Positions 9,280-46,303 of a stretch of DNA of 64,000 bases are shown piece by piece. Origin of the DNA: an uncultured Candidatus Saccharibacteria bacterium (GTDB taxonomy: Bacteria; Patescibacteriota; Minisyncoccia; Phycocordibacterales; UBA918). Each line of letters begins with the position of its first letter. The first letter of the stretch is position 1. The stretch covers positions 97,538-161,537 of the forward strand of contig CAYGJY010000002.1 of the NCBI GenBank assembly GCA_964350645.1. Direction: 5' to 3'. The translations under genes and the position numbers were made by a program. The notes beneath the pieces were generated by a model, which searched no databases, was not told where the DNA came from, and worked only from the letters and a program-made list of their open reading frames with translations.

Positions 9280-9323
9280 ACGAGTAATTTATTTTAAATG
9301 AATAAATAATTACTTATGAGTGA

Positions 9324-10418: not shown

Positions 10419-10419
10419 A

Positions 10420-12157: not shown

Positions 12158-12159
12158 TC

Positions 12160-12376
12160 AAGAGGTAGCAAGCATTATACCCTCCCCAGAGTAACTGTAA
12201 ACTTTTTGATAAAAAAATTGAACGACGTGGTATTTTTTGTGTGCAGTCCTGTCAACTGTGTATAACCTGTGCAGAACTTTTTGCGGCTGCTGTAGGTTAG
12301 TCAGAATCTTTGACAGGATTGAAAAAATAACGCAATAGTGTATAGTTGTGCCCACCAATCAACCAATACGTATTTT
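12160..12376. promoter_or_regulatory. dnaA upstream region with a DnaA-box-like site, and the rpmH promoter
   Basis: tgtgtataa at 12257..12265 matches TGTGGATAA at 8/9. Confidence 0.3.
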
Positions 12377-12526
12377 ATGCCAAAACGAACCTATCAACCA
12401 AGTCAAAAGAAGCGTATGACTACGCACGGGTTTCTCGTGCGGGCCGCTTCAAAGGCTGGTGCGAAGATTCTGAAGAATCGACGCCGCAAAGGCCGTGCTG
12501 AACTTGCAGTTCAAAAAAGTAAGTAA
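12377..12526 (+). CDS. rpmH: 50S ribosomal protein L34
   Basis: [49 protein letters not shown]. The ORF-track entry starts 13 codons upstream at a non-plausible Met. Terminator hairpin at 12531..12557. Confidence 0.9.
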
Positions 12527-12587
12527 TAAAAGAGCCGCGCCTGCGGCTCTTTTATTTAGGTATACTTAGTAAGAATCTGTAGCTGAT

Positions 12588-12911
12588 ATGCTTAAAAAAA
12601 ATCAACGATTAACCACTGAAGCGTTTGACCAGTTTTTCAAAACTGGACGACGTTACCATACTCCCCACCTCCAACTTATCTATACTCCCCACCCAGTCTT
12701 TCATGGCTCAGTGGTCGTCGGTAAGAAGGTGTGTAAACGAGCCGTTGACCGCAACCGTTGGCGCCGACGTGCGTATAATGCTCTCTATCAACTAACAAAA
12801 CAAACCAATCAATCTGGTGTCTATATTGTTGTCTTGAAACCAACTGCCATTACCCTCTCATTTGCAGCGCTACGGCAAGAAATAGCTACAGTGGTTGGCC
12901 GGACGCAGTAA
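12588..12911 (+). CDS. rnpA: RNase P protein component
   Basis: 107 aa basic protein in the conserved rpmH-rnpA-yidC arrangement. Confidence 0.85.
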   Translation: MLKKNQRLTTEAFDQFFKTGRRYHTPHLQLIYTPHPVFHGSVVVGKKVCKRAVDRNRWRRRAYNALYQLTKQTNQSGVYIVVLKPTAITLSFAALRQEIATVVGRTQ

Positions 12912-12955
12912 TCAGGGTAGAATGACCCAACTTATTTTTAAGCTTTCATTCAGGC

Positions 12956-13684
12956 ATGTTTAGTTATATTTGGCATTCATTTTTCTTTGACCCGGTGTAT
13001 AACGGTCTCGTATTTTTTATTGATGTGGTTCCTGGTGGCGATGTCGGGATTGCCATAATTCTCATTACGGTGCTAGTAAAAGTTCTCCTCCTCCCGCTTT
13101 CATTAAAGGCAGCTCGAACGCAGCGTTTGATGCGTGAACTTGAGCCAAAACTTAAAGAGATTAAGGAAAAATTCAAAGATAAGCGCGAAGAACAAGCGCG
13201 TGCCATGATGGATTTATATAAAGAAGCCGGCCTGAATCCGTTTGCCAGTATTCTCCTCATTTTTATTCAAATTCCAATTATCATTGCCCTCTACTTGGCG
13301 GTGTATCGTGGTGGGGGTGTACCACTGCCGGATATAAATGTTGATTTACTCTACGCTTTTATTCCGAGTCCTGAGACTGTTAATATGATGTTTGTTGGTC
13401 TCATTGATATGGCTGGCAAAAGTCTGCCGTTGGCGCTACTCGCTGGGGCGACACAATTTGTCCACGCACAACTTTCATTCCCGAAACCAGAACCAAAAAA
13501 AGAAGGGGCTGAAGCTAGCTTTAAAGATGATTTTGCCCGTAGCATGCAAATGCAGATGCGCTATGTTATGCCGCTCATTATTACGGTTGTTGCCTACACT
13601 ATTTCAGCAGCGATCGGTTTGTACTTTGTGGTCAGTAACTTAGTAGCGATTGCTCAAGAGGTGCTGGTAAAGAAGGAAAAATAA
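12956..13684 (+). CDS. yidC: Membrane protein insertase YidC (short monoderm-type)
   Basis: 242 aa; YidC/Oxa1 core helices (PLSLKAARTQRLMRELEPKLKEIKEKF...NPFASILLIFIQIPIIIALY). Confidence 0.8.
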   Translation: MFSYIWHSFFFDPVYNGLVFFIDVVPGGDVGIAIILITVLVKVLLLPLSLKAARTQRLMRELEPKLKEIKEKFKDKREEQARAMMDLYKEAGLNPFASILLIFIQIPIIIALYLAVYRGGGVPLPDINVDLLYAFIPSPETVNMMFVGLIDMAGKSLPLALLAGATQFVHAQLSFPKPEPKKEGAEASFKDDFARSMQMQMRYVMPLIITVVAYTISAAIGLYFVVSNLVAIAQEVLVKKEK

Positions 13685-14587
13685 TTATTCAGGGGTACAA
13701 ACTAGTACTTTATTTCTTTTTGATCCATTTTTAAGTTCAACAATCTCTGGTACACCCGCTTCACCACTGGGCAATAAATCGCCATCTTCACAATCGTCTT
13801 CTTCTTGTCCGCAGACTGATCTGCCACCAAAACTTACTTGGATTTCACATGTCACAGCAATAGTTTCTTCTGTAACGGTGACAGAATCAGGTAATATGCT
13901 TTTTATAGCATCAGAGGTTATTTTTAGTTCTGCCAGTTCAGATGCATCGTCGTCCACTGGATAATAGCATTTTCCACTGTCAAAAATTCCCTTGCCCACC
14001 ATTATGCCACCTCGATTTTCACAAATTGTTTCGCAAATAGCATATGCACCTTCTAGAACAATCGGTATATCAAAACCAGAGCACTCCTCGAGCGCACAAT
14101 TACCAGCTTCAGAAGCACAATATTCAACGAAAGACCGTCTTTCAGTACTATCTAGGTCAATCTCAGTTTCTCTGGTAAGATCCTCAAAAGAAGGTGCGTT
14201 TGGCAAAATACCAAATGAAGTTAGGTCTTTATTAATAGTATTCAGTATAACTACCGCTAAGATAATGATCATGAGGCCAAGAATTGCAGCGTAGATGTCT
14301 TTTTTAGCGTCGGCCTTGTCAGTTACGATGCCACTTAAGACATACTGCACCCCAGCCATGATGAGTTTCACTACTGCTATAAGCGCACCAGCAATAATAG
14401 CCAGACGCAGTAGGGCGTTTAAATAGTCATTAAAACTGAGTTTGTTTATCTCTTCGGTTTTTTCGAGACCTGGTAAACCGACGAGTGGAATAAATCCTTG
14501 AGCTGAGGCGACTGCTGGCAGGATTGTTATCAGCACTATCAGTACGGGTAGAACAGTCGCGCACAATGTTTTAAAGTGTTGTGTCAT
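13685..14587 (-). CDS. Secreted/membrane pilin-like protein with Cys-rich C-terminal domain (hypothetical; possible VirB2/TrbC-like)
   Basis: Likely start at MTQHFKTL (14587; the ORF track extends to 14713). It has a signal peptide, two hydrophobic helices, then a roughly 200 aa tail containing 14 cysteines. First gene (3' end) of the T4SS-like cluster. Confidence 0.4.
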   Translation of the reverse strand: MTQHFKTLCATVLPVLIVLITILPAVASAQGFIPLVGLPGLEKTEEINKLSFNDYLNALLRLAIIAGALIAVVKLIMAGVQYVLSGIVTDKADAKKDIYAAILGLMIIILAVVILNTINKDLTSFGILPNAPSFEDLTRETEIDLDSTERRSFVEYCASEAGNCALEECSGFDIPIVLEGAYAICETICENRGGIMVGKGIFDSGKCYYPVDDDASELAELKITSDAIKSILPDSVTVTEETIAVTCEIQVSFGGRSVCGQEEDDCEDGDLLPSGEAGVPEIVELKNGSKRNKVLVCTPE

Positions 14588-15758
14588 AGAGCCAGAGCGT
14601 ATTATCATTTTTATTACTAAACAAGATTTTTTCACCATTTTGACTAGTTGTGATGCTGAAAACATCGATAGCTCGACCAGCTGTCTGTTGTAGATTAGAA
14701 ACAGATAGTGCACTCATATTATTTAGGTCAATTTTCCATAAAATATCTTCCGATTGACGAGTACCTTGATACCAATCTACTAGTGCATCGCCCCCGTCTG
14801 ACAAGAGTGGTGCAGCACACCACATAATCGAAATGTCGGCATTTGAAACAGTACATTTTTCGGGAATAAATTGAATCGGTAGTGTTTCGCGGGCGTCAGT
14901 TGTCAGACTGGTTATAGTTGAAATACTGTCGCCAGCTCCAGTGTTTGCGGTGGAAAAGACTCGCCCATTATTCACCGTTGCAACCAAGCCATAGGCACTA
15001 GGGATAACTGGCCGCAGCGTGTCACTCACTATTTTATACAATGATCCGGTCATTTGGTCACTCACTCGGTTATACACATAGGGTGTATTTAGAGTGTCAG
15101 CAGAACTGGTGTCCCAGATTGTCCGAACACTTCGAAGAGGAATAGAAAATACTTTAGTGGGTTGGCCGCTGAGGAGATTATAGGTATATCCGTCAGTTCC
15201 CCCGTCCGTCAGTACTGTGTACGCAAGCTGTGAATCAGATACAAAGTTAGTTTCAGTGGTTTGTTGGGGTAGATTAATAAGAGGTGTGTCACTCGCTGAG
15301 CCATCTGCTAAAGACAATAACAGTGTGGCACGGGATCCATCAGTGTCAGTTGTCAGTGTCAGATGTTCAGCATTGGGTGAAAAAGTCGCCTCAAAAACTC
15401 GGGCAACAGTTGTGTTATTGATTTTTGTTTCGGGGGCTGTCGTGGTTGTATCCAATTCATAGACATGGCCCACCCCCCGCTCAACAAACCGTAGTATCGT
15501 GTCGTCGTTACCAATAAAACTGAAACCAGCAACTGGTTTTGTAGTTAGCTGTCTGAGTGCTTTCGTGGGGGCATCGTTTGGTAGCGTTTGGGGTGTAGGC
15601 AAAGTGGGTTCGTTGTTGATAGGACTACTTTCAAATCCGAGGTTTGCAAAGACGTCGTCAGTTTGTTTAGGTGTTCCAAACAATAATAAGTAGACCCAAA
15701 CAGCAATAACGCTGAGGATAACGATGACGCCAATACTAATGATGAGGGTTTTCTTCAC
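14571..15758 (-). CDS. Membrane-anchored extracellular protein, Thr/Ser-rich, beta-rich (hypothetical)
   Basis: 395 aa; N-terminal TM (IISIGVIVILSVIAVWVYLLLF) then a large extracytoplasmic domain. Overlaps the downstream gene by 17 bp (operon-like). Confidence 0.5.
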   Translation of the reverse strand: MKKTLIISIGVIVILSVIAVWVYLLLFGTPKQTDDVFANLGFESSPINNEPTLPTPQTLPNDAPTKALRQLTTKPVAGFSFIGNDDTILRFVERGVGHVYELDTTTTAPETKINNTTVARVFEATFSPNAEHLTLTTDTDGSRATLLLSLADGSASDTPLINLPQQTTETNFVSDSQLAYTVLTDGGTDGYTYNLLSGQPTKVFSIPLRSVRTIWDTSSADTLNTPYVYNRVSDQMTGSLYKIVSDTLRPVIPSAYGLVATVNNGRVFSTANTGAGDSISTITSLTTDARETLPIQFIPEKCTVSNADISIMWCAAPLLSDGGDALVDWYQGTRQSEDILWKIDLNNMSALSVSNLQQTAGRAIDVFSITTSQNGEKILFSNKNDNTLWLYDTTL

Positions 15759-15816
15759 AAATTAATTATAGCAGCAAGCTAGGATTTGAGAGGTACGAAC
15801 TTCCCCAGACAATCAA

Positions 15817-16779
15817 TTAGAAATTAAGGGTAAAGTCAGCTTTACTACCCTGTAATAAATTTTCTAGATTTCTAATGTGTAGTTCGGCCTTAACTGATCC
15901 AGAATTTGCCGTTCGACGGAGAGTAATTTCACGAGGATCTGTCGACGGATTGGTAATGGTCTGATTATTTAATTTCCACTCAATGAGAGGGTCATTTGAA
16001 AAAATAGTACTATCGAGATAATAGGGTTCACCACGAACAGTTATTTCGCTGCTGATTAATAATGTTGGGTTTCGTAGCGTCATGTTTGATAGGCCACGGA
16101 GAGGATTGTTTTCGTAGAATAATATCTCCGGCTCGGCAATTTCAATTTCAGTTAATTTACGAGCTACTGTGCGACCAGAACTATCTGAAACGTTTACACG
16201 CACCAGTACACGAGGTTTTTTGGGTGTCTCAAATGTGGCCACGTTTTTTCCGACTATTGGCCCCCCATAGAGAGGTTTATTATCAACTTGCCAACTATAG
16301 GTTAATTCATTGGGATTAAGGTTAGTGTCGGGGATGGCTATGATGCGCATCATGCTGCCAGCACTTGGGAGCGGCCTCCCCTGATAGTGGTTGGGTACAG
16401 ATGTATCTGCTTCAACAATTATATCCACTCGACTTGGAGCTATTGTTTCAGTTAGGTTAAGGGTTTGACCATTTTTCAAATTAGCCACAACCCGAAGAGT
16501 AATAACCTCTCCCTTACTGCCAGCTAAAAAAGTAAAGGTGCGGGCATTTTTTGCTTCGGGTTGTTCAATTTCATCAAGGTACCAAGTAATGGTAGCGCCA
16601 GTGGTATCGAGGGAGTAAGCATTTAATGAGGCTTTAATTTCCTGGTTGGGTTCTGGATATTGAGGAGAGAGTTCAATTGAAACTGAATCAGGAATTACCC
16701 CCAGTTGAGCATTTATTTGCACAGGGAACAGGATCAGCATTCCAGTAAATAGGCCACTGAAAATAAGCTTTAAATACAT
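15817..16779 (-). CDS. Secreted hypothetical protein
   Basis: 320 aa with an N-terminal signal peptide (LFTGMLILFPVQINAQ). Confidence 0.5.
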   Translation of the reverse strand: MYLKLIFSGLFTGMLILFPVQINAQLGVIPDSVSIELSPQYPEPNQEIKASLNAYSLDTTGATITWYLDEIEQPEAKNARTFTFLAGSKGEVITLRVVANLKNGQTLNLTETIAPSRVDIIVEADTSVPNHYQGRPLPSAGSMMRIIAIPDTNLNPNELTYSWQVDNKPLYGGPIVGKNVATFETPKKPRVLVRVNVSDSSGRTVARKLTEIEIAEPEILFYENNPLRGLSNMTLRNPTLLISSEITVRGEPYYLDSTIFSNDPLIEWKLNNQTITNPSTDPREITLRRTANSGSVKAELHIRNLENLLQGSKADFTLNF

Positions 16780-16834
16780 ATATACCAGTATAAGCTACAG
16801 CTGCTAAGTCCTGCTCTGCAATTGTTCATAATAT

Positions 16835-17581
16835 TTAAGTTTGACTGTCATGATTGATGACATCGATCATCACCACGCCTACCCACGGCGCAATACCGCC
16901 AACAAATGGTATCCAATACCAGGCGGCCATGGCAAAAAATGAGCTACTCAAGTTGCCACCGAAAGGATTAACCCGGTACACGACTGCTGCTGTAACCAAT
17001 TGAGCCCAGCCAAGTAAAGCAGCCATAATAATACCGAACATCGCGATTGATTGGCCAGGAATAAATTCGGCCACTACGACTGCAGCGCCTTCACCAACCA
17101 CTTCCCCAGCAACACTGCCTAGGCTGAAGGCTGTAAGCTCAATAGTAATCCCAGATATTGAAATGAGCCAAAATAAAAATTGGGCAATATATAAGTAGGT
17201 ACAAATTTCAATGATGAGCAGTGTTTCTCGACGGCGGGTAACAATGTTGGCTGGGTTATTTATTCTGGCCGTAAAAAATCCACCAAGTGATTGCGCAGCG
17301 CCTTTTTGCTGGGCTTCTTGGTCGTACCAGGTAGAGTCTGAAAAAGTTTGGTTGTCATTAGCGGCTTCCAGTTTTTCATCAGGATTACCAAATGGATAGC
17401 GATAGCGCTGACTAAAATCCTCATCTATAGTGCTCGGTGAACCGTCCACGCGCTTAGCGGGGGACTGTTTTTGTTGCTGCCGAGCAACATGATTGCGATT
17501 GCGCTGACGTCGGTCGTCAGTATCAGCGCGACGCTTTACACGTACATTTTGAGGTGACGACTGTTGGGCTACTGCTGCCAT
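16835..17581 (-). CDS. Membrane protein with basic/Gln-rich N-terminus and 3-4 C-terminal TM helices (hypothetical T4SS-associated)
   Basis: 248 aa, immediately downstream of the VirB4-like ATPase in the same orientation. Confidence 0.45.
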   Translation of the reverse strand: MAAVAQQSSPQNVRVKRRADTDDRRQRNRNHVARQQQKQSPAKRVDGSPSTIDEDFSQRYRYPFGNPDEKLEAANDNQTFSDSTWYDQEAQQKGAAQSLGGFFTARINNPANIVTRRRETLLIIEICTYLYIAQFLFWLISISGITIELTAFSLGSVAGEVVGEGAAVVVAEFIPGQSIAMFGIIMAALLGWAQLVTAAVVYRVNPFGGNLSSSFFAMAAWYWIPFVGGIAPWVGVVMIDVINHDSQT

Positions 17582-17599
17582 GCAGTAAGTATATCACTG

Positions 17600-19438
17600 C
17601 TATCCCTGGGCAGCCTTGAGGTCGGCTTTAGCGCGCTTAATTTGCAGAATTTGTGATGGATCGGAGGTGATAATTTGGTCTTCAGTGTATGAAGCGATGA
17701 CTTTGATAGCTACGTGTTTGAGGCCAGCAAAGAAGATCCCTTCTCCAACGTTTGATTCTAAGAGCAGTAATTTTTCTTCATCGGTCAGGTTGAATGTTCT
17801 TTGGATGTTGTCGACGGCTGTTGGTGATTGTTTCATCAGTAATTGCAAACTTGAGTTGGTGATCATCGGTACACCATATGGACTCCGTAAAAAGTCGTCT
17901 ACGTCTTGAGTGATGGTCGAAAGGCCAAGGTAGTATTTTCGACCACGCTTAGCGAGCATAAACAGGAATGATGCTGTATCTTCACTTTTCATCATCCACC
18001 AGGCTTCGTCGATAACTAGAAGACGTTTGGTAAGGCGCCGTCGAATTGCACTCCAGATGTGGTTGGTAATAATGTACATGGCGATAGTTTTCAATTCGTC
18101 CTCCATGTCACGAAGAGAAAAGACAATGAACTTCTGGTTGATATCAACGTTAGTTGGCTCATTCATAAAACCAGACCAGGTCCCAGATGTATATTTTTGT
18201 AAACGAGCAATCAATGAAGCGCTACCTTCCATGCCGGCTAAAACCATTTCAAAATCTGACAGTAATGGAGGCTCAAGTTCAGCAAAGTTACTTGCGCCAG
18301 TGATGTCTTTCAAGGCATAGGTTTCGCGAATTGCTTCATCGACGACAGTCTCTTCTTCTGGTGATAGTCCACCAAGCATGAGACGAAATAGTCCCGTCAT
18401 TTCAATAATATGAGAACGCAGCACATCATTAGGGTCCTCATCTTCAAGTGGTGCGGGTAAGTCAAACGGATTAATGTGGTGACTTGAAGACAGTGAGATA
18501 TTAAAGAATCTACCCCCCGTTGCTTCAGCCAGGTATTCGTATTCTCGCTCGGGGTCAATAACGATTACTTCAGTCCCAAACATCAGTGAACGAAGGATTT
18601 CTAATTTTGTTGTATAGGACTTCCCTGCCCCCGAGGTGGCGAATGTTACCGAGTTGTAATTAGTGAGTTGGAAGCGGTCAAATAGTACTAAACTTGAATT
18701 GTGACGGTTAATACCGTAGAGAATCCCTGAGTCAGAAGTTAGGTCAAATGAGGTAAACGGAAAAAAACTTGAGAGAGGTGAAGAATTAAACTTGCTATGT
18801 ACAAAGAGTTCATCGCTCATTGTTGGAATGATGCTTTTGAGCCCCTGTTCTTGCTGAAATAACGCCGGTTTAATATAAATAAGACGCGAATCGAGAATAC
18901 CCTTAATTTCTGTTTCGGATTTATCAAGCTCTTCCTCACTGTCACCATAAATTGAAAGGTATAGACCAACATCAAATAATTTTTCCTCAGCTTGCTGAAG
19001 TTTGTCGCGCAGATCTTCCAGGTTGCGGTAGGCAGACTCAAGTTGTGGATCACGCACCATCCCCTTCTCGGCGTTAATACTCATTTGACTTTGTACCTCG
19101 GCTACCTTCTTTTGGAATTTTTTTAAGGTCTCAGCTGTGTCAATTGGGTGAATCACGATTGAAATATCCATTTCCCGCTCCAGATTCAAAATTGGTTCGA
19201 GCCAACCATCGTTCAGATAGCGTGGATAGGATACAGCGAAAAATACTCGTGAGATTTTGCCGCTGATGTTTACGCTGCGGGGATTGATATTGATTGCTGA
19301 CGGTGAGATAACATCGGCTAAGGTTAGTAACGAGTTCTCAATTGCTGCCTCGTCAGCATCGGTTGGAGTTTTATTTGGTTGTAAGAAATCTAAAAGACCC
19401 ATATTAGTTAGCACCTGGAGCGGAGGTTCCCACTTCAC
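17600..19438 (-). CDS. VirB4/TrbE/CagE-family T4SS ATPase, C-terminal ATPase portion
   Basis: 612 aa; Walker A FATSGAGKSYTTK, DPEREY, Walker B LLVIDEAWWMM, RKYYLGLSTITQ. Overlaps the upstream ORF by 35 bp in a different frame. Confidence 0.8.
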   Translation of the reverse strand: MKWEPPLQVLTNMGLLDFLQPNKTPTDADEAAIENSLLTLADVISPSAININPRSVNISGKISRVFFAVSYPRYLNDGWLEPILNLEREMDISIVIHPIDTAETLKKFQKKVAEVQSQMSINAEKGMVRDPQLESAYRNLEDLRDKLQQAEEKLFDVGLYLSIYGDSEEELDKSETEIKGILDSRLIYIKPALFQQEQGLKSIIPTMSDELFVHSKFNSSPLSSFFPFTSFDLTSDSGILYGINRHNSSLVLFDRFQLTNYNSVTFATSGAGKSYTTKLEILRSLMFGTEVIVIDPEREYEYLAEATGGRFFNISLSSSHHINPFDLPAPLEDEDPNDVLRSHIIEMTGLFRLMLGGLSPEEETVVDEAIRETYALKDITGASNFAELEPPLLSDFEMVLAGMEGSASLIARLQKYTSGTWSGFMNEPTNVDINQKFIVFSLRDMEDELKTIAMYIITNHIWSAIRRRLTKRLLVIDEAWWMMKSEDTASFLFMLAKRGRKYYLGLSTITQDVDDFLRSPYGVPMITNSSLQLLMKQSPTAVDNIQRTFNLTDEEKLLLLESNVGEGIFFAGLKHVAIKVIASYTEDQIITSDPSQILQIKRAKADLKAAQG

Positions 19439-20066
19439 CAGGATTAAAGATGTGATAATACAATTCTACCAGTTCATCATTTTGCAGTTTAGCTGTGCGA
19501 ACACCGATACGGTTAAGACCCTGTTCAACGACGGCCGCCCGCTGCTCAAGTTGTAGGCGGTGCTCTGCAAATTTCTCGTCACTTGGTGGTGTTGATTGGC
19601 TGCCACCAAGGAAACTTGAAAAATTTGACTTGAGGTCAACTCCGATGGGGATATACGGGATGACCACAAAGAAGTTTTTGGTCATGACGTCGACTTCAGT
19701 TGTAAATGTTTTTACAAACGACATGTATTCCCGTAGTTGAATTTGCATGAGATCGTTGTCTTGCTCAGTTTCCCGAGCGGCCAATTTTTGTAAGTATGGG
19801 TTGATGTCCAGTCGACGCGATTGAATGTAGATCTGCAGTGAAAAATCAATGGTATTTAAAAACGACTGAAATTGGTGCAAAATTGCTGTTTGTTCGTCGG
19901 AAGATTTGAGGGCAAAGTTGATTGAAGAAGCGAGCATGACAATATTCATTTGGCCATTTTTAAGAATGACCACGCCGTCTTTGATGTCACGAATGGGAAC
20001 AAAATTTTGGGTTGAAAGATTAGTTTTAGGCATACTATTTTTGTTCTTGGATGGCCTTGAGCTCAA
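19404..20066 (-). CDS. VirB4-family N-terminal domain protein (likely the N-terminal part of the split VirB4)
   Basis: 220 aa. Combined with the downstream 612 aa ORF this gives about 830 aa, the size of an intact VirB4. Positioned directly upstream with a 35 bp frame overlap. Confidence 0.5.
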   Translation of the reverse strand: MSSRPSKNKNSMPKTNLSTQNFVPIRDIKDGVVILKNGQMNIVMLASSINFALKSSDEQTAILHQFQSFLNTIDFSLQIYIQSRRLDINPYLQKLAARETEQDNDLMQIQLREYMSFVKTFTTEVDVMTKNFFVVIPYIPIGVDLKSNFSSFLGGSQSTPPSDEKFAEHRLQLEQRAAVVEQGLNRIGVRTAKLQNDELVELYYHIFNPGEVGTSAPGAN

Positions 20067-20463
20067 GCTGGCGTGAGAGTGAGTTTAAGTTACTTTTACC
20101 CGCTTGAGGTACATGGCTGGCTGCCTCTAGTTGTTCAGGTTGGCCGTGATAAATACCAGAGCCAGTCTTGCGCCATAAATAGAGTTTTGATTTACGAAAA
20201 TAATTTACCATTGACTCAAGATAGATTGAGAAAGGTCGGTTGTTCACTTGGTAGAACGCGAGCAGCACTCCAAGACCCCCAAGAGGGATACCAATAATAG
20301 CAAAGATGAAAATATTGGTAGTCAGAAACAAAACCGCTGCAAATCCAAGTCCGCCACCCAAGAATAAAAATTGCTTCCAGGTAAACGGACCAAAAATTTT
20401 ATCTTCAATCTCAATAAACTGCGGTACTTCAAATCGCATAGTCACATTATACATTGAACCCAC
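20035..20463 (-). CDS. VirB3-like two-TM small membrane protein
   Basis: 142 aa; hydrophobic hairpin FLFLGGGLGFAAVLFLTTNIFIFAIIGIPLGGLGVLLAF; located immediately upstream of the VirB4-like genes, as in monoderm T4SS loci. Confidence 0.45.
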   Translation of the reverse strand: MGSMYNVTMRFEVPQFIEIEDKIFGPFTWKQFLFLGGGLGFAAVLFLTTNIFIFAIIGIPLGGLGVLLAFYQVNNRPFSIYLESMVNYFRKSKLYLWRKTGSGIYHGQPEQLEAASHVPQAGKSNLNSLSRQLELKAIQEQK

Positions 20464-20466
20464 GCA

Positions 20467-21030
20467 CTACTCAGTGGCATGGTTCGATTTATCCCCGCCT
20501 TCGGGGGCTTGGTAGTTTGGTAGACCACTAAGTAAGGGTCGTTTTTCTAGAGTGTCAGCTTGAGAAGTAGCCCTAATGACATGCTCTTCTTCAGATGTGA
20601 AGTGTTCACTGTCCCTGGTGTACCCCACTTGAGGAGTAACTCGAGCTTTTTCAGCGTCAGTCTGCATAGTGCGGACTGGCACTGGAGTACTCATTGGTAA
20701 TTCTGGCTCTGCCCCTCCGGCTGCAGTCGTTATTTGTTGTTGGTCTAAGAATTTTTTAATTTCAATGACTAACTTATCGCTCGCTTCTTTTGGAAGTTTC
20801 AAATCAGTTTCGAGCGTATCAATAATGTCGGCTAGCGAATATAAACGCAGAGCCAAATCTGACACGACTAAAACTAAATCGCGAAATAAGTTTTCAGGCA
20901 AAGCATTGGTTTCAAGAAAGTTAGTCACAAAGGTTGTGATAGTATCGGAATCAATCAGCTGCTTCAGCTCTGGCGGAGCAGCTTTGTAGGCCACGTCAAA
21001 TTCTTCCCACGAGGTGATTTTTTTTATCAT
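20467..21030 (-). CDS. Hypothetical cytoplasmic protein in the T4SS-like cluster
   Basis: Start taken at MIKKITSW to avoid a 61 bp overlap (ORF track 20467..21093); no recognisable motifs. Confidence 0.4.
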   Translation of the reverse strand: MIKKITSWEEFDVAYKAAPPELKQLIDSDTITTFVTNFLETNALPENLFRDLVLVVSDLALRLYSLADIIDTLETDLKLPKEASDKLVIEIKKFLDQQQITTAAGGAEPELPMSTPVPVRTMQTDAEKARVTPQVGYTRDSEHFTSEEEHVIRATSQADTLEKRPLLSGLPNYQAPEGGDKSNHATE

Positions 21031-21032
21031 AG

Positions 21033-23063
21033 TTAGGTATTTTGTAGGTTCAAGCGAGCTGCTAGTGGTGTATGCTTCTCCCAGCTTTGCCATTGTTTCG
21101 TGTAGGCACCAGGACCACTTGGGCTCAATCGATCCAGAAGAATTTGATTGTCAATATTTTTCGACATAGTCTGGAGGTCTGGATCAGCGATTTTACCGTC
21201 TTTCATCTTAGCTTCGACCATAGTTGGCGTGAGATGAGGGGCCATGGCCGCATCAGTGAATACTTCGTCAGGCATTTTGGCAAACTCTTTGCTACCACGT
21301 TGAGCTAAGAGCTGGCGTTGGGTTTGGGTACCCACCATCTGGTTGCCACGCGTGCCCGTAGTGGCTACTTGTTTCATAGCTTTTTTCTTGGCAGTTTTGA
21401 TGTCACCAATTTGTTGGTCAGAGTATTTGCCAGTTTTTTCGAGATCATCAATTTGATCAGCAGAGAGATGCAGGGCTACCTCTTCTTTGGTCAGGATATT
21501 GATATCCATGTCTTTCATTTGTTCGGTTGTTAAGTCACCGATTGCGCTGACCATATCTTTTAGTTGGTCAGCTGTCGGAGTTGTCCCACCAGTAGGATTA
21601 ATAACAGTATCAATGTCAGTCAAGCGTTTATTTTCTGCTGCTTTTTGAGTGGTACGTTTTTGTCGTTCTTCTCTAAAGTTGTCGATATCACCCAAAGAAC
21701 GGTGTAGACCCTCTGGCTTCCAATTTTCCCACATATCGGTATGTTCGAGTACGAGGTGATCAGCCTCTGTGGCTTTAACAGCAGAACGTGCAAAATCCCC
21801 GATTTTACTTCCCGTTCCAGCTGCACTACTACGTGATTGCCAATTTTTGAGACCTTTCCCAACTGCCCCGGCGGTACGTCCAACTGCCCAACGCCGTATT
21901 CCTCGGTCTGGGAAGCGGGCCATATAACTCGCTTGACGCATGATCCGGTCCCCGCCGTTTTTGGTCATGGTGTAGGCGGCGTTGGCACCATAGGCACCCA
22001 TCATTTGAGCGACCTTGAGTGAAGCAACCAGGAAACCAGTTACTAAAAAGAAGTACAAGATGATCATGAATGCTCCATTTGAAGCTGCGTTTTGTTCATA
22101 TGCTTCTGCAAATGTGCCGTTTACTCCAATTCCACTGAGAGCCCAGAGTGAGAGATAGAGCATAAATAAATAGGCCGGCGCTACAAACGCGTATTTTAAA
22201 AATTTTGTCCACCACTCCTTACCCTGCTTGGCGGCCAAAGGAGACATCAGCCCCAAAAACATCATGGGCGAGAGAATCATAAATATAATTAGGGCAATAA
22301 AGCGACCAATCAAAATCACCGCCCCAGAAGCAAAGACAAAGCCAGCAAAAATCATAAAAAACATCATGAGAATACCAAACATGATAAAGCGACCAGAAAT
22401 GAAATCTGTTTCACCGCGGATATTTTCGAGCAATGAGCCGTCGGCGAAAGACGGTAGTTTGGTGGCATTCATAAAAGCGGCGGTCACACTTTTTTGGTCA
22501 GCGCCACCAAACGTGACTGTTGTCGCTCCGCCTTCATCACCACCTGAAACAGTGATAGTGCTGGTATCAGCGGCGACGTTGGCCATCATTGCCGTGTGGA
22601 TTTGAAAAGCAGCAATATTTGAGAAATCGATGATGGCTTTGGTGATGAACAAGCTAAAGTTGATCATCAGCGCGGCAATGATCAGATATCCGAGAGCTTT
22701 TTTGGTACTTGTGTCATTTGAAAATAAAATAGTACGAAAACCGATGTAGATTAAACCAAAAATGAAGAAGATATTAAATAAATCCCTCACTACTACCCAG
22801 AGCTCGTCTACTACTACTCCTAGATTTGCTTCTAGATAATTCCCCATGCCAATGACTAAGTAGATCACCGTGTAATCAAGCAGGCTACCTCCTACCCATA
22901 AAAATAGTCCTCCAAAACCAACACAGATTGTGTACAGAAAAGAACCTACTGATGTGGGAATACTATCTGCATATACAGGTGTGGTGCAGCCGATAATAAG
23001 CACACAACAAAACAGTAGTTTAAGTAGTAGTCGAGTAGTTTTTTTAGAAACAGAAATACGCAT
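21033..23063 (-). CDS. VirB6/TrbL-like polytopic membrane protein with long hydrophilic C-terminal domain
   Basis: 676 aa; signal/TM N-terminus, at least 6 TM helices in the first ~370 aa, then a charged coiled-coil-like tail. This architecture resembles monoderm VirB6 homologs. Confidence 0.55.
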   Translation of the reverse strand: MRISVSKKTTRLLLKLLFCCVLIIGCTTPVYADSIPTSVGSFLYTICVGFGGLFLWVGGSLLDYTVIYLVIGMGNYLEANLGVVVDELWVVVRDLFNIFFIFGLIYIGFRTILFSNDTSTKKALGYLIIAALMINFSLFITKAIIDFSNIAAFQIHTAMMANVAADTSTITVSGGDEGGATTVTFGGADQKSVTAAFMNATKLPSFADGSLLENIRGETDFISGRFIMFGILMMFFMIFAGFVFASGAVILIGRFIALIIFMILSPMMFLGLMSPLAAKQGKEWWTKFLKYAFVAPAYLFMLYLSLWALSGIGVNGTFAEAYEQNAASNGAFMIILYFFLVTGFLVASLKVAQMMGAYGANAAYTMTKNGGDRIMRQASYMARFPDRGIRRWAVGRTAGAVGKGLKNWQSRSSAAGTGSKIGDFARSAVKATEADHLVLEHTDMWENWKPEGLHRSLGDIDNFREERQKRTTQKAAENKRLTDIDTVINPTGGTTPTADQLKDMVSAIGDLTTEQMKDMDINILTKEEVALHLSADQIDDLEKTGKYSDQQIGDIKTAKKKAMKQVATTGTRGNQMVGTQTQRQLLAQRGSKEFAKMPDEVFTDAAMAPHLTPTMVEAKMKDGKIADPDLQTMSKNIDNQILLDRLSPSGPGAYTKQWQSWEKHTPLAARLNLQNT

Positions 23064-23065
23064 AA

Positions 23066-24547
23066 CTAAATTCCATTAAGTAACCGGTCACATCGCGATT
23101 CTTCATTTTGAAGAGCTTCATCAAAATCTCGTAGTTCTACGTCCATGAGAATTATTTCTAAATTGACTTCTGCTTGAGCCACCTCAACTTGCGAAGCAGC
23201 GGCAGTGTCAAACTGAATTTGACGGGCAGCTAGCGTGAGATCGAGTTGAGCTTGCGTCGTCGTCGCTTGATTGTATGCTCGCTGGACCCGCCGTAGGTCG
23301 ACGATTACTTGGTTGATTAGAGGGATGATCTCGACCGCTTCAGTACGGGCATCGGTATAGACAGGTGGTAATTCGGCGTTGAAGCAAACAGGGTACTGCT
23401 CTTCTAGGTCTTCTATGCGAGTTTCTTGGCGATCAACAAAGGCAATGGTTTGGTTCATGACTCGTCGGTAGTTTTGCTGGGTAGTAATTGCATCTTGAAT
23501 CGGGTCGCCACCAGTTGCGACAGCACCGCTTGTTTCAGTCTGCGTTCGTTCAAGGAGGGTCGGTCCGGCGCCACTTTCTCCGCGGTAGGCGTAGGCTGAG
23601 TTTCCGCCAGCGCCAAGTAGACCTCCAACCCCAGTAATCAGCGTACTACCAAATTGTGCCAAGACCGCACCGACAAGTTCATTAAATTCATCAGCAAAGG
23701 CCAATTTCTGACCAGGGATACCTAAATATTGATTAAATTGTGTTTCGACTAAGCCTCCCGGAGTGGTGACTGTACAATTATTGATTGAGCCACTAAGAGA
23801 GACACCTTCCTCACAGATCTGAATATTTTTGAAAAACTTATTGGCTTTGAGAATTTCAAATTCACCATCTCGTGTGCGTAGAACAATCGCGTCACGCTCA
23901 GCACTTGCATTTAAGAAAGCTTTGTTAGGGTCATTGTTAGCCCCTTGGGTTAGTTCAAACCAACCAGCCCAACCGCCTTCAGCAAAGTTTCCGTTAAGGA
24001 AGTTTTCCATATTGCCAACAACATCAGATAAGGTACATTGCGGCTCATAGCCATCTGCACCATAGTATTGCAAGCTGAGCGCGATGCGAATGTCGAGCTC
24101 AAAGGGACTACACAAAAATCCAAGTTCACTACCATTAATAAATCGTCCAACAGCTTCGTCGACAACATCAGTAAGGAAGCCTTCAATGTTGGTGACAAAT
24201 GCCGGACTACCTTGGAAGCCTGAGTTGACCCAGGCAGTCAGCGAGGTCAGCATGTTGGAAATCAAGGCGTTCGCTAGACCCCAGAAGAGTGGGTCTAAAA
24301 TATTTTCTTTAACCCACTCGTCGTATTCGTATATTTGGATAGCCACGTCAGCAATGGCTGAGATAGTTGATTCAACCGAAGTTTTAACGTTGTTAGCAAA
24401 GTTGAGGACATCTTTAACCGTGAAAGCTTCGGCTGGTTCCACGTATACTACTTTGGTATGCGATAAAGGTGAGGCAGCCACCATAATAGCTACCACCAAA
24501 ACTGAAGCAATGTAGGAGGTGACGTTTTTGTAGTGGAAGAGATTCAT
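23066..24547 (-). CDS. Secreted hypothetical protein (signal peptide, C-terminal coiled coil)
   Basis: 493 aa, N-terminal hydrophobic signal VLVVAIMVAASPLS. Confidence 0.5.
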   Translation of the reverse strand: MNLFHYKNVTSYIASVLVVAIMVAASPLSHTKVVYVEPAEAFTVKDVLNFANNVKTSVESTISAIADVAIQIYEYDEWVKENILDPLFWGLANALISNMLTSLTAWVNSGFQGSPAFVTNIEGFLTDVVDEAVGRFINGSELGFLCSPFELDIRIALSLQYYGADGYEPQCTLSDVVGNMENFLNGNFAEGGWAGWFELTQGANNDPNKAFLNASAERDAIVLRTRDGEFEILKANKFFKNIQICEEGVSLSGSINNCTVTTPGGLVETQFNQYLGIPGQKLAFADEFNELVGAVLAQFGSTLITGVGGLLGAGGNSAYAYRGESGAGPTLLERTQTETSGAVATGGDPIQDAITTQQNYRRVMNQTIAFVDRQETRIEDLEEQYPVCFNAELPPVYTDARTEAVEIIPLINQVIVDLRRVQRAYNQATTTQAQLDLTLAARQIQFDTAAASQVEVAQAEVNLEIILMDVELRDFDEALQNEESRCDRLLNGI

Positions 24548-24552
24548 ATGTA

Positions 24553-25461
24553 TTACCAGAGATTAATGAACCCAAAAACTTGGCGGGCTAGGTCATTTTC
24601 TTTATAGGAAATACCCTCCCCTTCGAGGTTGGTGTAGAGATTAACGAGGGCATAGTAGAGACCCTTGGTGTCATCTTGATAGCGTTTCAGTCGTGTCATG
24701 GTGTAAAGCGGATCAGTAAATGATGCTTCCATAGCTGCGATGTCGATCGCTAGCGCATTGTAAGCATTAAGGAGGTAGACGTGATCGTCAGCTAGTGAGC
24801 GAGGAACCTCTAAGGTCAGCATATCGCCAAGCATCCCTTCGTATGATTTTTTAATAGGAGCAAGCTTGGCTAAGGTTTCAGGGTTGTTGCGTTCGACTGC
24901 CTGTTTTGTAATCAGCGCCTCATTCTCAGTTTCAACTGGGACAGCGTGTACCAAAGCAATTTCAGCGACTTTATTGCCGTAAGCAAAGAGTGCTTCGCGG
25001 TTGGTGTCATCAATGACGGCTATGTCCCTAAACGTATATAGGTCGTCAACAGCCGCAGCTTGGATTTGCTTCTCAAAATTATCAACAATCTGACCTTGTT
25101 GTTCATCAAACACACCATACTGCTTAGCTTCGACGGTATCTTTGAAAAGAGCGATTGCCATTTGTCCCGTCAGTGTGTCTGGTGGAGTGTAGGTACCGGC
25201 TGTCGTTGTGCCTGAATCAAGAGAAATTGTTTGCACCGTACGCAGTGTTTCTCGCCAATCAGCAATGCCATTGTTATTTGCGTCAGCGATGGCGATATAA
25301 CTCCGCTCTGGGGCAGCCGCCACTATTACAGCAGCTGATGCCGGAGTACTTTTTTCTGTGACGACACCATAAAGTGAGGCTGAGATCAGACCAGCTCCAA
25401 TAACAAATGCACCTAAAATCTTGGCGTTCATAAACGGTAGTCTCAGTATAACAGTCGCCAC
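24553..25461 (-). CDS. Membrane-anchored extracytoplasmic protein (hypothetical; positional VirB8-like candidate)
   Basis: 302 aa (or start at MNAKILGAF, 25431); one N-terminal TM then a roughly 270 aa soluble domain; first gene of the cluster. Confidence 0.4.
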   Translation of the reverse strand: MATVILRLPFMNAKILGAFVIGAGLISASLYGVVTEKSTPASAAVIVAAAPERSYIAIADANNNGIADWRETLRTVQTISLDSGTTTAGTYTPPDTLTGQMAIALFKDTVEAKQYGVFDEQQGQIVDNFEKQIQAAAVDDLYTFRDIAVIDDTNREALFAYGNKVAEIALVHAVPVETENEALITKQAVERNNPETLAKLAPIKKSYEGMLGDMLTLEVPRSLADDHVYLLNAYNALAIDIAAMEASFTDPLYTMTRLKRYQDDTKGLYYALVNLYTNLEGEGISYKENDLARQVFGFINLW

Positions 25462-25537
25462 TATACATATATATGTATAAAGGTAATAACCTGTGATTAA
25501 CCGTGGGGACAGCTATGTATAGTCTGGGGAACAGCTG

Positions 25538-26347
25538 TTAGGTATTGATCGATTGAAGCTCTTGTACTAACTGTAGCCATATTTCAAGGGATAGGTCTTC
25601 GGCTCGGACATCAAGCGGTAGTGCTAGTGTGGAAAAGATGTGGGTAAGTTGGTTTCGCTCAAAGTGGGCTGCTAAATTACCAAGGAGCTGTTTTCGTTTT
25701 TGGCCAAAACCAAGGTGGAGCATTTCAAAAAAGAAGGTTGGAGAAAGCGATATAAAGTGTTCCTGATTGATATGTTCAATAGAAATGATAGCTGAGTCAA
25801 TCTTTGGCGGGGGTGTGAAGTGCCCTCTCAAAACCGTCGTAACGTAGTGTGGCTGCCCAAATGCCTCAATGGAAAGAGAGAGGAGGGAACTTTTTGTGTC
25901 ACGGGCAATGCGTTTGGCAACCTCTTTCTGAATTAGAAAGACAATTTGGCTTGGTTGTACTTTGTGCTCGAGTAAGGTGCGAAACAGGTATCCGGTTAGG
26001 TAGTATGGGATATTGGCGACTACTTTAAAGTTGTGATTGGTGAAGCTATAGTTAGTTATATCGAGCTCACGGGCGTCACCGTGATGTAGTTCAAGCAATC
26101 CGTCCGCAAGCTCAGTAGGAAATGTTTCTTTGAGAACAGTGATAGCTCGTTCGTCTGCTTCAAGTGCCACGACTTTTGCCCCACGTTGCAAGAGTTCGCG
26201 GGTCAGAGCACCAGTGCCGGGTCCGATTTCGAAAATAGTCTCACCAGTGATGATGTGGGCAGCATCACACATCCAGCCAGGGACAACTGGACTGGTGAGG
26301 AAGTTTTGTCCAAGGCTTTTCTTTTTGTGAAACGTCGATTCAGTCAT
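25538..26347 (-). CDS. rsmA: 16S rRNA (adenine1518/1519-N6)-dimethyltransferase
   Basis: 269 aa; LGQNFL and SAM motif FEIGPGTGALT. Confidence 0.9.
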   Translation of the reverse strand: MTESTFHKKKSLGQNFLTSPVVPGWMCDAAHIITGETIFEIGPGTGALTRELLQRGAKVVALEADERAITVLKETFPTELADGLLELHHGDARELDITNYSFTNHNFKVVANIPYYLTGYLFRTLLEHKVQPSQIVFLIQKEVAKRIARDTKSSLLSLSIEAFGQPHYVTTVLRGHFTPPPKIDSAIISIEHINQEHFISLSPTFFFEMLHLGFGQKRKQLLGNLAAHFERNQLTHIFSTLALPLDVRAEDLSLEIWLQLVQELQSINT

Positions 26348-26448
26348 AAATGAAGCCTACGGTTTTGCAGGTGACTTGGCAAGGGTCTGTATATGAGCAG
26401 CCGACAGAACATTTTGTCACTTTGGCTGCTGCGCATCTTTATGTCCCC

Positions 26449-28413
26449 TCAGTCAATTTCAATAATTGTTTCGTACCCAGAGTTGTTTTCATTACCTCCG
26501 CGTCTGGCATCGTCCCCGTCGATGTAGTCACTATCAAGATCATGCAAAAATGATGAGGGTACGTTAATACGTTGGCTACCGAAAATTGTTCGCATGTGTG
26601 CGTAGGTTAAAAATATTTTTTTCTCAGCTCGAGTTAAGGCGACGTAAAACAGTCGGCGCTCTTCTTCGTGATCGACGCCGCGATCGTCGAGACGTTCATG
26701 CGGAAAGAGACCCTCTTCAAGTCCGGTGATAAACACATAGGGAAACTCGAGTCCTTTGGCAGCGTGGATGGTCATGAGTCTAACGGCATCTTGCTCTTCT
26801 TTAGCTTTGAGTTCATCTTGATCAGACTGCAGCGCAGCGTCTTCAAGAAGGGTGTCGACTGCTTCTTCCGGGTCAAGTTCATCGTAGCGCACTGCAAGGG
26901 TGACAAGCTCACGTAAGTTTTCCAGTCGTTCCATATCCTCTTCAGTTCCAGATTTCCGATAGTCAGCTTCGATGCCAGTGCGCTTCATAATAAACTTCAG
27001 GGTTTCGGAAATGTTACTGGTCCGTGCACTGTCAGCAATATCACTCATCATCTCATCAAAGCGTTCTACTTTTTGTAATGCTGCTCCTGACAAATCTTCT
27101 CGTCTTCCTTCGACTACTTTGAGCATAGTGACTTTACCAATGCCGCGCGTCGGGGTGTTGATGATGCGTGTCAGGTCACTCGTACTGCCTGGGTTTAAGG
27201 CCAGACGCAAAAAAGACAATACATCTTTCACTTCTTTTCGTTCAAAAAATTTAGTGCCTAAGAGTTGGTACGGGACGCCAAAATTTAAAAATGCTTCTTC
27301 GAGAGAGCGTGACTGAAAGTTGGTCCGGTATAGCACAGCAACTCCAGATGGCGCAGCTCCATCAGCGATTAAGCTCTTGGCGGTCATTGCAATGTACTCT
27401 GCTTCGTCTGAACCAGTCATTGCGGCAAACACTGTAATGTTCTCCCCGTCTTGGTTATTGGTGAAAACTGTTTTTTCAACGCGGTTGTGATTCTTCTTGA
27501 TGATGTCGTTACTAGCGGCGATAATCGTTTTTGTTGAACGATAATTTTCTTCCAGCAAGACTGTGTGGGCACCAGGAAATTGTCGTTCAAACTGCAGCAC
27601 GTTTTGGATGTCAGCCCCTCTCCACGAGTAAATGTTTTGATCAATGTCGCCAACAACACAGATATTTTTTTGGTCGCTGGTTAGTTGTTTTGCAATTTCA
27701 AATTGTACCTTGTTAGTGTCTTGGTATTCGTCAACGTGAATATATTTAAATCGTTCACGAAGTGTCGCAGCTACCTGTGGGTGTGCTTCAATCAACCGTA
27801 GAGTTTTTAAAAGGAGATCGTCAAAATCAAGCGCGTGATCGTCCTTCATAATTTTTTCATAGTGCTCCCAGACTTCCCCAGCGACGCGTTCTGGGTAGCT
27901 TGAAGCGTCATCAAGGAATGTAGTACGACTGAGTGCGTCGCCTTTAGCACGCGAAATAATACTGAGCATCTTCCGGGGCTCGAATTGCTTTGGACTGTAG
28001 CCGGCTAGCTCAAGCGATTTTTTAATGGCTCGTACTGAATCACTACGATCGTAAATGACAAAGTGGCGCCGCAAGCCAAGGAGCTCATGGAATTCACGTA
28101 AGGTGCGTACACCAAAAGAGTGGAAGGTAGTGACCACTGGTAATGAGTCAATGAGCGCCCGATCACTCGGAGGATATTTTTTAATCAGAGCTAAAACCCG
28201 CTCACGCATTTCTTTAGCGGCTTTGTTAGTAAAGGTGACGGCAAGAATATTATGGGGAGCGGTGCCCTGGTGAATTAGATGGACGATGCGGTGCGTGATG
28301 ACGCGGGTCTTTCCTGAACCAGCGCCAGCGAGCACAAGCAAAGGGCCGTTAGTGTGGACTACAGCTTCAGTTTGTTTAGCGTTCAGACCTTCGATGTACC
28401 TGGGTGTCTCCAT
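26449..28413 (-). CDS. ATP-dependent DNA helicase, UvrD/PcrA family
   Basis: Walker A AGAGSGKTRVITHRI, helicase motifs throughout. Probable start at METPRYIEGLNAKQTEAV (the ORF track extends to 28512). Confidence 0.85.
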   Translation of the reverse strand: METPRYIEGLNAKQTEAVVHTNGPLLVLAGAGSGKTRVITHRIVHLIHQGTAPHNILAVTFTNKAAKEMRERVLALIKKYPPSDRALIDSLPVVTTFHSFGVRTLREFHELLGLRRHFVIYDRSDSVRAIKKSLELAGYSPKQFEPRKMLSIISRAKGDALSRTTFLDDASSYPERVAGEVWEHYEKIMKDDHALDFDDLLLKTLRLIEAHPQVAATLRERFKYIHVDEYQDTNKVQFEIAKQLTSDQKNICVVGDIDQNIYSWRGADIQNVLQFERQFPGAHTVLLEENYRSTKTIIAASNDIIKKNHNRVEKTVFTNNQDGENITVFAAMTGSDEAEYIAMTAKSLIADGAAPSGVAVLYRTNFQSRSLEEAFLNFGVPYQLLGTKFFERKEVKDVLSFLRLALNPGSTSDLTRIINTPTRGIGKVTMLKVVEGRREDLSGAALQKVERFDEMMSDIADSARTSNISETLKFIMKRTGIEADYRKSGTEEDMERLENLRELVTLAVRYDELDPEEAVDTLLEDAALQSDQDELKAKEEQDAVRLMTIHAAKGLEFPYVFITGLEEGLFPHERLDDRGVDHEEERRLFYVALTRAEKKIFLTYAHMRTIFGSQRINVPSSFLHDLDSDYIDGDDARRGGNENNSGYETIIEID

Positions 28414-46299: not shown

Positions 46300-46303
46300 A
46301 AAA

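Follow-up and report, generated by a model that had tools for sequence, protein, structure and literature searches.

Patescibacteria carry a chromosomal type IV secretion system (T4SS) that was described in publications of 2023-2025 (PMC12102498, PMC10633639), and the locus analyzed here is a further copy of that system rather than a system of a new kind. It consists of 11 genes on the minus strand (13685-25461) of a 64-kb stretch of DNA from an uncultured Candidatus Saccharibacteria bacterium (contig CAYGJY010000002.1), hereafter called the window. The first-pass annotation of this DNA, made from the letters alone, had considered the cluster largely uncharacterized, a view since overtaken by those publications. 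According to Quinonero-Coronel et al. (2025; PMC12102498), VirB4 occurs in 2417 of 3035 Patescibacteria genomes and most of these proteins form a monophyletic clade nested within MPF-FATA, accompanied by TrsD, PrgI/VirB3, VirB6 and VirB2-like pilins. The same authors report that most of the loci have neither a relaxase nor a nearby type IV coupling protein (T4CP), that the locus of Paceibacteria adjoins dnaA, dnaN, rnpA, ksgA and rpmH, and that VirB8 is almost never detectable in Patescibacteria, though expected in monoderm T4SSs.

The function of the system has been called "completely unknown" in a review (PMC11665869). Transposon sequencing, as presented by Wang et al. (2023; PMC10633639), found the T4SS and its pilins to be essential to S. 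epibionticum in growing as an epibiont and comEC to be dispensable, as is also stated elsewhere (PMC12857230). Reviews suggest either the import of DNA or other macromolecules or the delivery of effectors (PMC11665869, PMC12857230), import being proposed in PMC11665869 and in PMC12102498. A cultivated parasite of the Minisyncoccota takes up and feeds on host RNA, and tubular structures seen at the parasite-host interface may be T4SS pili (bioRxiv 10.64898/2026.06.21.733656).

The locus of the window shares with the Patescibacteria-clade T4SS (in S. epibionticum, SEML1_0006-0019) the set of VirB4, TrsD, PrgI/VirB3, VirB6 and a VirB2-like pilin, a chromosomal position by dnaA, dnaN, rnpA, rpmH and ksgA, the absence of a nearby relaxase or T4CP and the lack of a recognizable VirB8. 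Whereas Saccharimonadia have an array of pilins, the window encodes just one, whose C-terminal extension is large; otherwise we see no essential difference. Judging from sequence comparisons, the locus is in all likelihood a chromosomal Patescibacteria-clade T4SS derived from the monoderm MPF-FATA conjugation machinery and carried by what the labels of the nearest metagenome-assembled genomes indicate to be a Paceibacteria-type genome.

Outside Patescibacteria, the MPF-FATA systems of Firmicutes (CD1110/CTn2 type, as in C. perfringens pSXP-169_2) resemble the locus in having a VirB4 of the CD1110 family (~32% identity to the clostridial protein), PrgI upstream of VirB4, and a monoderm organization without VirB7, VirB9 and VirB10. 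Unlike the window, the clostridial locus encodes MobC, a relaxase, a VirD4-like T4CP, a full-length VirB4 (the N-terminus of which is matched by the TrsD-like protein of the window) and, directly downstream, an SLT hydrolase; a pilin is missing from it, and its extra genes have no relatives in the window. A separate TrsD is also found in the pGO1 trs subclass (TrsC-TrsD-TrsE; PMC12102498). The best VirB4 match outside the candidate phyla radiation (CPR), with 35% identity, is encoded on the megaplasmid of Pontibacillus sp. ALD_SL1 (NZ_CP062975, 351-361 kb; locus L082), which has a short VirB4, a separate TrsD-like gene (E 2e-25), PrgI and an M23 peptidase as the window does, together with two pilins recognized by the profile of the pilin family (E 5e-16 and 9e-10), and a 779-residue protein. 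No relaxase or T4CP is annotated within 9 kb on either side of this VirB4, and the PLSDB type is non-mobilizable. The Pontibacillus locus differs from the window in its position, which is not at a replication origin, and in having no detectable members of six further gene families (g02, g03, g04, g08, g10 and g11, see below); it may be the nearest relative that the patescibacterial system has outside the CPR. (Flagellar and chemotaxis genes adjoin it.) Finally, a VirB4-type ATPase working without a coupling protein is a feature shared with ComB of H. pylori and archaeal Ced, which are cited as precedents for import (PMC11665869; PMC12102498), but homology does not extend beyond VirB4 and the generic core, and ComB is a diderm system with VirB7-10.

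Organization and Core Components of the Locus

The 11 co-directional ORFs (open reading frames) fill the interval and are tightly packed, with gaps of about -60 to +58 nt (table 1). An independent gene call of an identical locus in a different public assembly (Logan ERR3534979, L081) returned the same 11 genes, with protein sizes of 302, 493, 677, 208, 134, 209, 600, 248, 320, 395 and 307 amino acids. The locus is an operon-like unit of 11 genes adjoining the replication origin. A scan for promoters and terminators gave counts equal to the shuffled expectation and was uninformative. In the analyses that follow, scores are set against the curated cut-offs of NCBIfam and Pfam, and the Pfam scans took in all window ORFs of at least 100 amino acids. 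For comparison, one genome per GTDB species was scanned, yielding at least 544 related loci; the 80 best were retained (L001-L080). These were picked via VirB4 peptide patterns, have VirB4 identities of 68-84% and derive from metagenome-assembled genomes (MAGs) labeled Kaiserbacteria, Paceibacteria, Nomurabacteria, Parcubacteria and similar.

The VirB4 protein (g05) scores 374.6 bits against NF045971 (VirB4-like, conju_CD1110 family; cut-off 325), in an alignment that spans only model positions 165-733, and 92.2 bits against PF19044 (P-loop_TraG; cut-off 25.8), with intact Walker A (FATSGAGKSY, including SGAGKS) and Walker B (VIDEAWWMM) motifs. A weak match to the CedB domain (38 bits) lies far below its cut-off. 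The best 120 homologues listed are all 82-100% identical and about 600 residues long, the named ones among them bearing Patescibacteria labels or belonging to unclassified MAGs, while the best plasmid relatives reach only ~35% identity. The protein encoded just upstream (g06) aligns with the N-terminal part of two VirB4 models, NF045975 (E 1.3e-11) and NF045971; its match to the TrsD model NF041427 (E 5.7e-6) is below the cut-off of that model, and an identical protein has a precomputed match to PF26593 (TraC-like). The splitting of VirB4 into two ORFs does not reflect a frameshift, because the homologues listed are all of ~600 residues and g05 and g06 remain distinct ORFs in 79 of the 80 loci. 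The next gene upstream (g07) encodes a PrgI protein with 36.8 bits against PF12666 (cut-off 27), present in 76-77 of the 80 loci.

The VirB6 homologue (g09) has about seven transmembrane (TM) segments followed by a charged C-terminal tail of ~320 residues. The window protein alone has no Pfam match, but a profile of the TM domain built from 59 orthologues matches TrwI, the VirB6 of R388 (7o3v_F), with E 7.6e-6, and PF04610 (TrbL) is matched by 10 of these orthologues (best E 2e-8). The VirB6 identity of g09 is thereby confirmed at the level of sequence profiles, which is an addition of the present work.

The pilin (g01) combines a signal peptide, a hairpin of two TM segments and an extracytoplasmic, Cys-rich C-terminal extension of ~175 residues with 10 Cys. 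Its score against PF18895 (T4SS_pilin), 24.5-24.8 bits, falls just under the cut-off of 26.6; this family is recognized in 49 of 61 orthologues and TrbC/VirB2 in 3 of them. Extensions of at least 100 residues are present in 38 of the 61 orthologues (median 136, maximum 350 amino acids) and show no conservation; their Cys count is nearly always even. Paceibacteria pilins commonly bear variable Cys-rich C-terminal domains, an observation added here; to our knowledge, canonical VirB2 pilins are devoid of such domains. (One pilin orthologue matches a subtilase domain, Peptidase_S8.)

Most elements that the first-pass annotation had recognized are borne out by these results, namely the contiguous minus-strand run with short gaps or overlaps, the VirB4/TrbE ATPase, the VirB6/TrbL-like polytopic protein with its charged tail and the pilin-like two-helix protein. 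Its VirB3-like protein with two TM segments also stands, but not the placement of this protein directly upstream of VirB4, since the TrsD-like gene, missed in that component list, lies between the two.

Table 1. Positions of the T4SS genes and of other features of the window mentioned in the text
Feature	Position	Strand	Description	Basis or remark
g01	13685-14713	-	VirB2-like T4SS pilin, last gene of cluster	real start probably 14608 or 14587
g02	14571-15758	-	N-anchored extracytoplasmic TolB-like beta-propeller	family profile
g03	15817-16779	-	secreted protein with signal peptide and tandem Ig-like domains (triple-Ig)	family profile
g04	16835-17581	-	membrane protein	positional orthologues and HMM
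g05	17600-19438	-	VirB4 ATPase, short form of ~600 residues without N-domain	real start probably 19402
g06	19404-20066	-	TrsD-like, stand-alone equivalent of VirB4 N-terminal domain	real start probably 20033
g07	20035-20463	-	PrgI/VirB3-family small membrane protein	PF12666
g08	20467-21093	-	soluble protein of ~187-208 residues	positional HMM; real start probably 21030
g09	21033-23063	-	"extended" VirB6/TrbL homologue, 676 residues	orthologue profile
g10	23066-24547	-	N-anchored or secreted 493-residue protein of a large unannotated family	family search
g11	24553-25461	-	first gene of cluster; N-terminal membrane anchor and extracytoplasmic four-helix-bundle domain	AlphaFold
LysM-M23	28818-29813	+	LysM and M23 peptidoglycan peptidase, 3.3 kb beyond cluster, just past pcrA	PF01551, PF01476
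RuvB	1030-2016		AAA+ protein
DnaA	10760-12157		AAA+ protein
ComM	30871-32388		AAA+ protein
629-residue protein	32810-34699		unannotated single-pass membrane protein
PNPase	34801-36936		9 kb from T4SS
Recombinase	39326-40240		XerC/D-type, 14 kb from cluster
CarAB	43069-47443		carbamoyl-phosphate synthase
ATP-citrate-lyase-like	53888-56760		gene pair
DapD-type	59680-60516		succinyltransferase

Genomic Context and Conservation

On one flank of the cluster lie yidC, rnpA and rpmH, followed by dnaA and dnaN, and on the other rsmA/ksgA and pcrA/uvrD. Wherever the contig is long enough, the 80 related loci show the order pcrA-rsmA-g11-g10-VirB6-(g08)-PrgI-TrsD-VirB4-(g04)-g03-{g02, pilin}-yidC-rnpA-dnaA-dnaN, with the orientation of the T4SS relative to dnaA identical in all of them. 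The clustering noted in the first-pass annotation thus recurs, in the same order, in 80 species-level genomes, and the locus is therefore a vertically inherited core locus and not an integrative and conjugative element (ICE). The GC content of the cluster (0.42-0.46) does not differ from that of its flanks. Cumulative GC skew reaches its minimum at ~9-11 kb, near dnaA and dnaN, which, with the arrangement of dnaA, dnaN and rpmH, would place oriC at about 10-12.5 kb. If oriC is indeed there, then within the region 9000-28512 the T4SS operon together with rsmA and pcrA (~15 kb in all) is transcribed toward the origin, head-on to the rightward replication fork.

In comparisons within the same genome pairs, which are biased by the choice of loci through VirB4 peptide patterns, VirB4 exceeds DnaA in conservation at 41 of 58 loci (median difference of +11.6 identity points) and exceeds DnaN, PcrA, RsmA, YidC and RnpA in every locus compared. 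Such conservation would not ordinarily be expected of a "secretion" gene and agrees with an essential role. The extracytoplasmic proteins, on the other hand, are only ~26-36% identical among orthologues. The combination of a conserved VirB4 with variable surfaces would be expected where an essential cytoplasmic motor is coupled to fast-evolving surfaces of host contact.

The peptidase with LysM and M23 domains is found next to pcrA in ~10 related loci as well and resembles the M23 protein that the Pontibacillus locus encodes directly after its VirB4 (E 7e-13). It may belong to the system as a VirB1-type enzyme that opens the wall; VirB1-type proteins with M23/LysM domains, and VirB1 homologues associated with VirB4 in Paceibacteria, are reported in PMC12102498.

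Accessory Proteins

The remaining six genes are conserved accessory families, defined here; they are not discussed in the main passages of PMC12102498 and PMC10633639, supplements aside. Together with the pilin, four of their products (g02, g03, g10 and g11) are placed outside the cell by their signal peptides and membrane anchors. The g02 protein, present in 69 of the 80 loci, has a TM-like segment at residues 9-27, and its family profile matches TolB structures with E 8e-6. The family profile of g03, present in 75 of the 80 loci, matches phage Hoc (3shs_A) with E 2.7e-7, and the protein has weak matches to Ig_3 and BiPBP_C.

In the g10 protein, a conserved core that contains Cys (WxNSGFxGxPxF ... 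CSPF ... GGW) is accompanied by a helical bundle at the C-terminus. Neither Pfam nor NCBIfam models match the protein; its family is large, with 5797 clusters (at 50% identity) at E<=1e-3 and 2943 at E<=1e-30; no plasmid-borne homologue was found by tblastn. Some orthologues add Ig, fn3 or F5/8-C domains, and are therefore consistent with surface exposure. An AlphaFold2 model of g10 has a mean predicted local distance difference test score (pLDDT) of 64.7, with residues 350-490 above 90 and the conserved core at low confidence (pLDDT of about 40-78). Foldseek searches against the Protein Data Bank (PDB) found nothing at E<0.1 and only coiled-coil noise above that value, and a profile search of the PDB was empty. 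The multiple sequence alignments used for structure prediction were shallow (36 and 16 sequences), although relatives of g10 number thousands.

The product of the first gene, g11, is predicted by AlphaFold to be all-alpha (predicted TM-score of 0.62), with residues 140-290 at pLDDT 85-96. It carries a degenerate TSP3-like Ca-binding motif (DANNNGIADW), and bacterial TSP3 calcium-binding repeats occur in 7 of 43 orthologues. This protein had been the positional VirB8 candidate of the first-pass annotation, an assignment that we abandon since the predicted fold is an all-alpha four-helix bundle and not the VirB8 fold; no VirB8-like bitopic protein of NTF2 fold is recognizable in the cluster.

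The positions of g04 and g08 are occupied by ORFs in 43 and 64 loci, respectively, whose relationship to the window proteins went undetected by BLAST across the related loci. Hidden Markov models (HMMs) were made from these positional orthologues with the window sequence left out; that of g04 has as its only match in the window the g04 ORF (E 1.4e-13), and that of g08, from 64 sequences, only the g08 ORF (E 2.4e-15). The g04 protein begins with a basic, disordered cytoplasmic tail of ~119 residues, net positive in 29 of 39 orthologues, and continues with three to four TM helices ending in a conserved P-W motif. The possibility that g04 might be a second, long-leader pilin is unsupported, with E 0.37 to a TrbC/VirB2 chain of the PDB and an hhalign probability of 2.4%. 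The g08 protein has a helical N-domain, a linker and a short conserved motif, P-x-RT(M/F)xxD, with no convincing TM segment and no relative in Pfam or the PDB; it is presumably cytoplasmic. The pattern [LIVMP]RT[FM]xxD followed by (K/R)AR occurs only twice among all six-frame ORFs of at least 60 residues in the window, once in g08 (PVPVRTMQTDAEKAR) and once at the N-terminus of the unannotated 629-residue protein (LQRLRTFADDVNRAR). BLASTP and hhalign found no kinship between these two proteins beyond the short motif, which could be a shared binding motif or due to chance.

Proposed Mechanism and Alternative Functions

The following mechanism is drawn by analogy with solved Gram-negative T4SSs. 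In the cytoplasmic membrane, PrgI/VirB3 and the VirB6 channel would be the docking site of the split ATPase, formed by the TrsD-like N-domain protein and the short VirB4. No other ATPase being present, this one would extract the Sec-exported VirB2-like pilin from the membrane and polymerize the pilin into a pilus or conduit on VirB6. The wall-spanning, host-contacting part would be built or decorated by g10, the four-helix bundle of g11, the Ig repeats of g03, the TolB-like g02 and the Cys-rich domain of the pilin, while the LysM-M23 peptidase may open the wall. We regard the overall explanation of the locus, with this as its most likely way of working, as highly probable.

Without a coupling protein, relaxase or VirB11, the locus is unlikely to recruit cytoplasmic DNA or effectors in the classical way. 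What the apparatus would move instead can be proposed in graded fashion: contact-dependent import of host macromolecules such as nucleic acids, with attachment to the host as an integral part, is our tentative preference; effector export ranks next and seems rather unlikely, a pilus for attachment only is doubtful, and conjugation comes far behind. This ranking rests on the absence of the canonical substrate receptor and on the need of these organisms to draw nucleotides from their hosts. Several points weigh against the combined interpretation. Homologues of T4CP are present elsewhere in many patescibacterial genomes (PMC12102498) and our scan covers 64 kb; and Wang et al. favor protein export or another role (PMC10633639). 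Moreover, VirB4 is placed in the Patescibacteria clade by sequence similarity, the comparison of its conservation carries the selection bias mentioned above, and the core of g10 is modeled at low confidence, so that any architecture of the extracellular part is guesswork.

An effector exporter would deliver proteins of the epibiont, for instance toxins or effectors that manipulate the host, into the host cell or onto it, recognizing substrates without a canonical coupling protein through, for example, g08, the basic tail of g04 or the long tail of VirB6. The conserved and presumably cytoplasmic g08 and the large charged cytoplasmic tails agree with such a role, but the window yielded no candidate for an effector, a chaperone or a secretion signal, nor a T4CP in its 64 kb. 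Ptl draws its substrate from the periplasm, which monoderms lack, and this also counts against export. Secretion of proteins by T4SSs without T4CP is known for Ptl and Brucella VirB (PMC12857230; PMC12102498), yet both are diderm systems; the S. epibionticum T4SS "may instead export proteins" (PMC10633639), and effector delivery is likewise a matter of speculation in PMC11665869. We consider it less likely still that the locus encodes an attachment organelle alone, in which VirB4, VirB3 and VirB6 would assemble a VirB2-type pilus with variable adhesin domains and no cargo would pass. The variable Cys-rich extension in 38 of 61 pilin orthologues, the Ig, propeller, fn3 and F5/8-C surface domains typical of adhesion, and the tubular structures at the parasite-host interface (bioRxiv 10.64898/2026.06.21.733656) would all suit it; however, in Patescibacteria adhesion and motility are already served by type IV pili (PMC12857230, PMC11665869), and that VirB6 with its long tail, g04 and g08 have been retained may point to something beyond a filament.

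That the cluster is part of an ordinary conjugative element, an ICE or integrated plasmid with its relaxase, T4CP and integrase located outside the cluster or the window, is effectively refuted. Such an origin could be suspected from the CD1110/MPF-FATA family of VirB4, from the relaxases that a few Patescibacteria do bear (PMC12102498) and from a tyrosine recombinase in the window. This sole recombinase, however, is of XerC/D type and size, lies 14 kb away and is unrelated to the cluster, so that the first-pass statement that no VirD4, relaxase or integrase is present holds for the first two and requires this qualification for the third. Pfam scans of the window ORFs found no relaxase, T4CP, MobC or VirB11, and phmmer searches with the clostridial relaxase, MobC, CD1115 VirD4-like protein and SLT hydrolase returned nothing at E<=10 among window ORFs of at least 60 residues, these negatives covering the 64-kb window only and including no search for oriT; canonical relatives, by contrast, keep relaxase, VirD4, PrgI, VirB4 and hydrolase together. 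Repeats of att type flanking the cluster amount to short, chance-level matches, the 64 kb contain no mobile-element border, and the nearest tRNA genes are >25 kb away. Together with a GC content equal to that of the neighboring DNA and with flanks of dnaA, dnaN, rpmH, rnpA and yidC versus rsmA and pcrA conserved in order across 80 species, this leaves a conserved chromosomal locus and not an ICE. The first-pass proposal of a chromosomal, monoderm-style, non-conjugative T4SS-like apparatus with a probable role in host/episymbiont interaction therefore finds agreement in the HMM results, the missing relaxase and T4CP, the synteny and the literature.

A more far-reaching and improbable reading is a distinct sub-architecture of Paceibacteria, in which the pilin would be fused to a variable disulfide-rich domain for host recognition, the lineage-specific proteins g02, g03, g04, g08, g10 and g11 would replace the functions of VirB8, VirB1 and T4CP, and the basic tail of g04 and/or g08 would receive imported nucleic acid of the host. 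If true, the apparatus would be an essential feeding tube for nucleic acids rather than a secretion system. Patescibacteria form a very large, diverse and host-dependent group, and the origin-proximal T4SS belongs to the small number of envelope machines for which an essential part in epibiotic growth has been shown (in Saccharibacteria). The component map presented here, with its 11-gene module, VirB6 profile, rejection of VirB8, six accessory families, Cys-rich pilins and conserved VirB4, could guide experiments and structural studies on the way in which these cells feed on hosts.

Other Genes of the Window

The first-pass annotation had called ComM and a PilB-type ATPase compatible with a DNA-uptake-oriented envelope. 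ComM is indeed present, but no ORF of at least 100 residues in the window matches T2SSE/GspE models, and a PilB/GspE-type ATPase is thus not found among them; the AAA+ proteins of the window are RuvB, DnaA and ComM. PNPase is encoded 9 kb from the T4SS, and a 2026 preprint has linked PNPase and VirB4 to host-RNA feeding in the phylum of the window.

CarAB, the ATP-citrate-lyase-like gene pair and the DapD-type gene are somewhat unexpected in a reduced patescibacterial genome. The last of these lies inside a local GC peak (0.575 at 59-61 kb versus ~0.45 elsewhere), which might mark acquired DNA.

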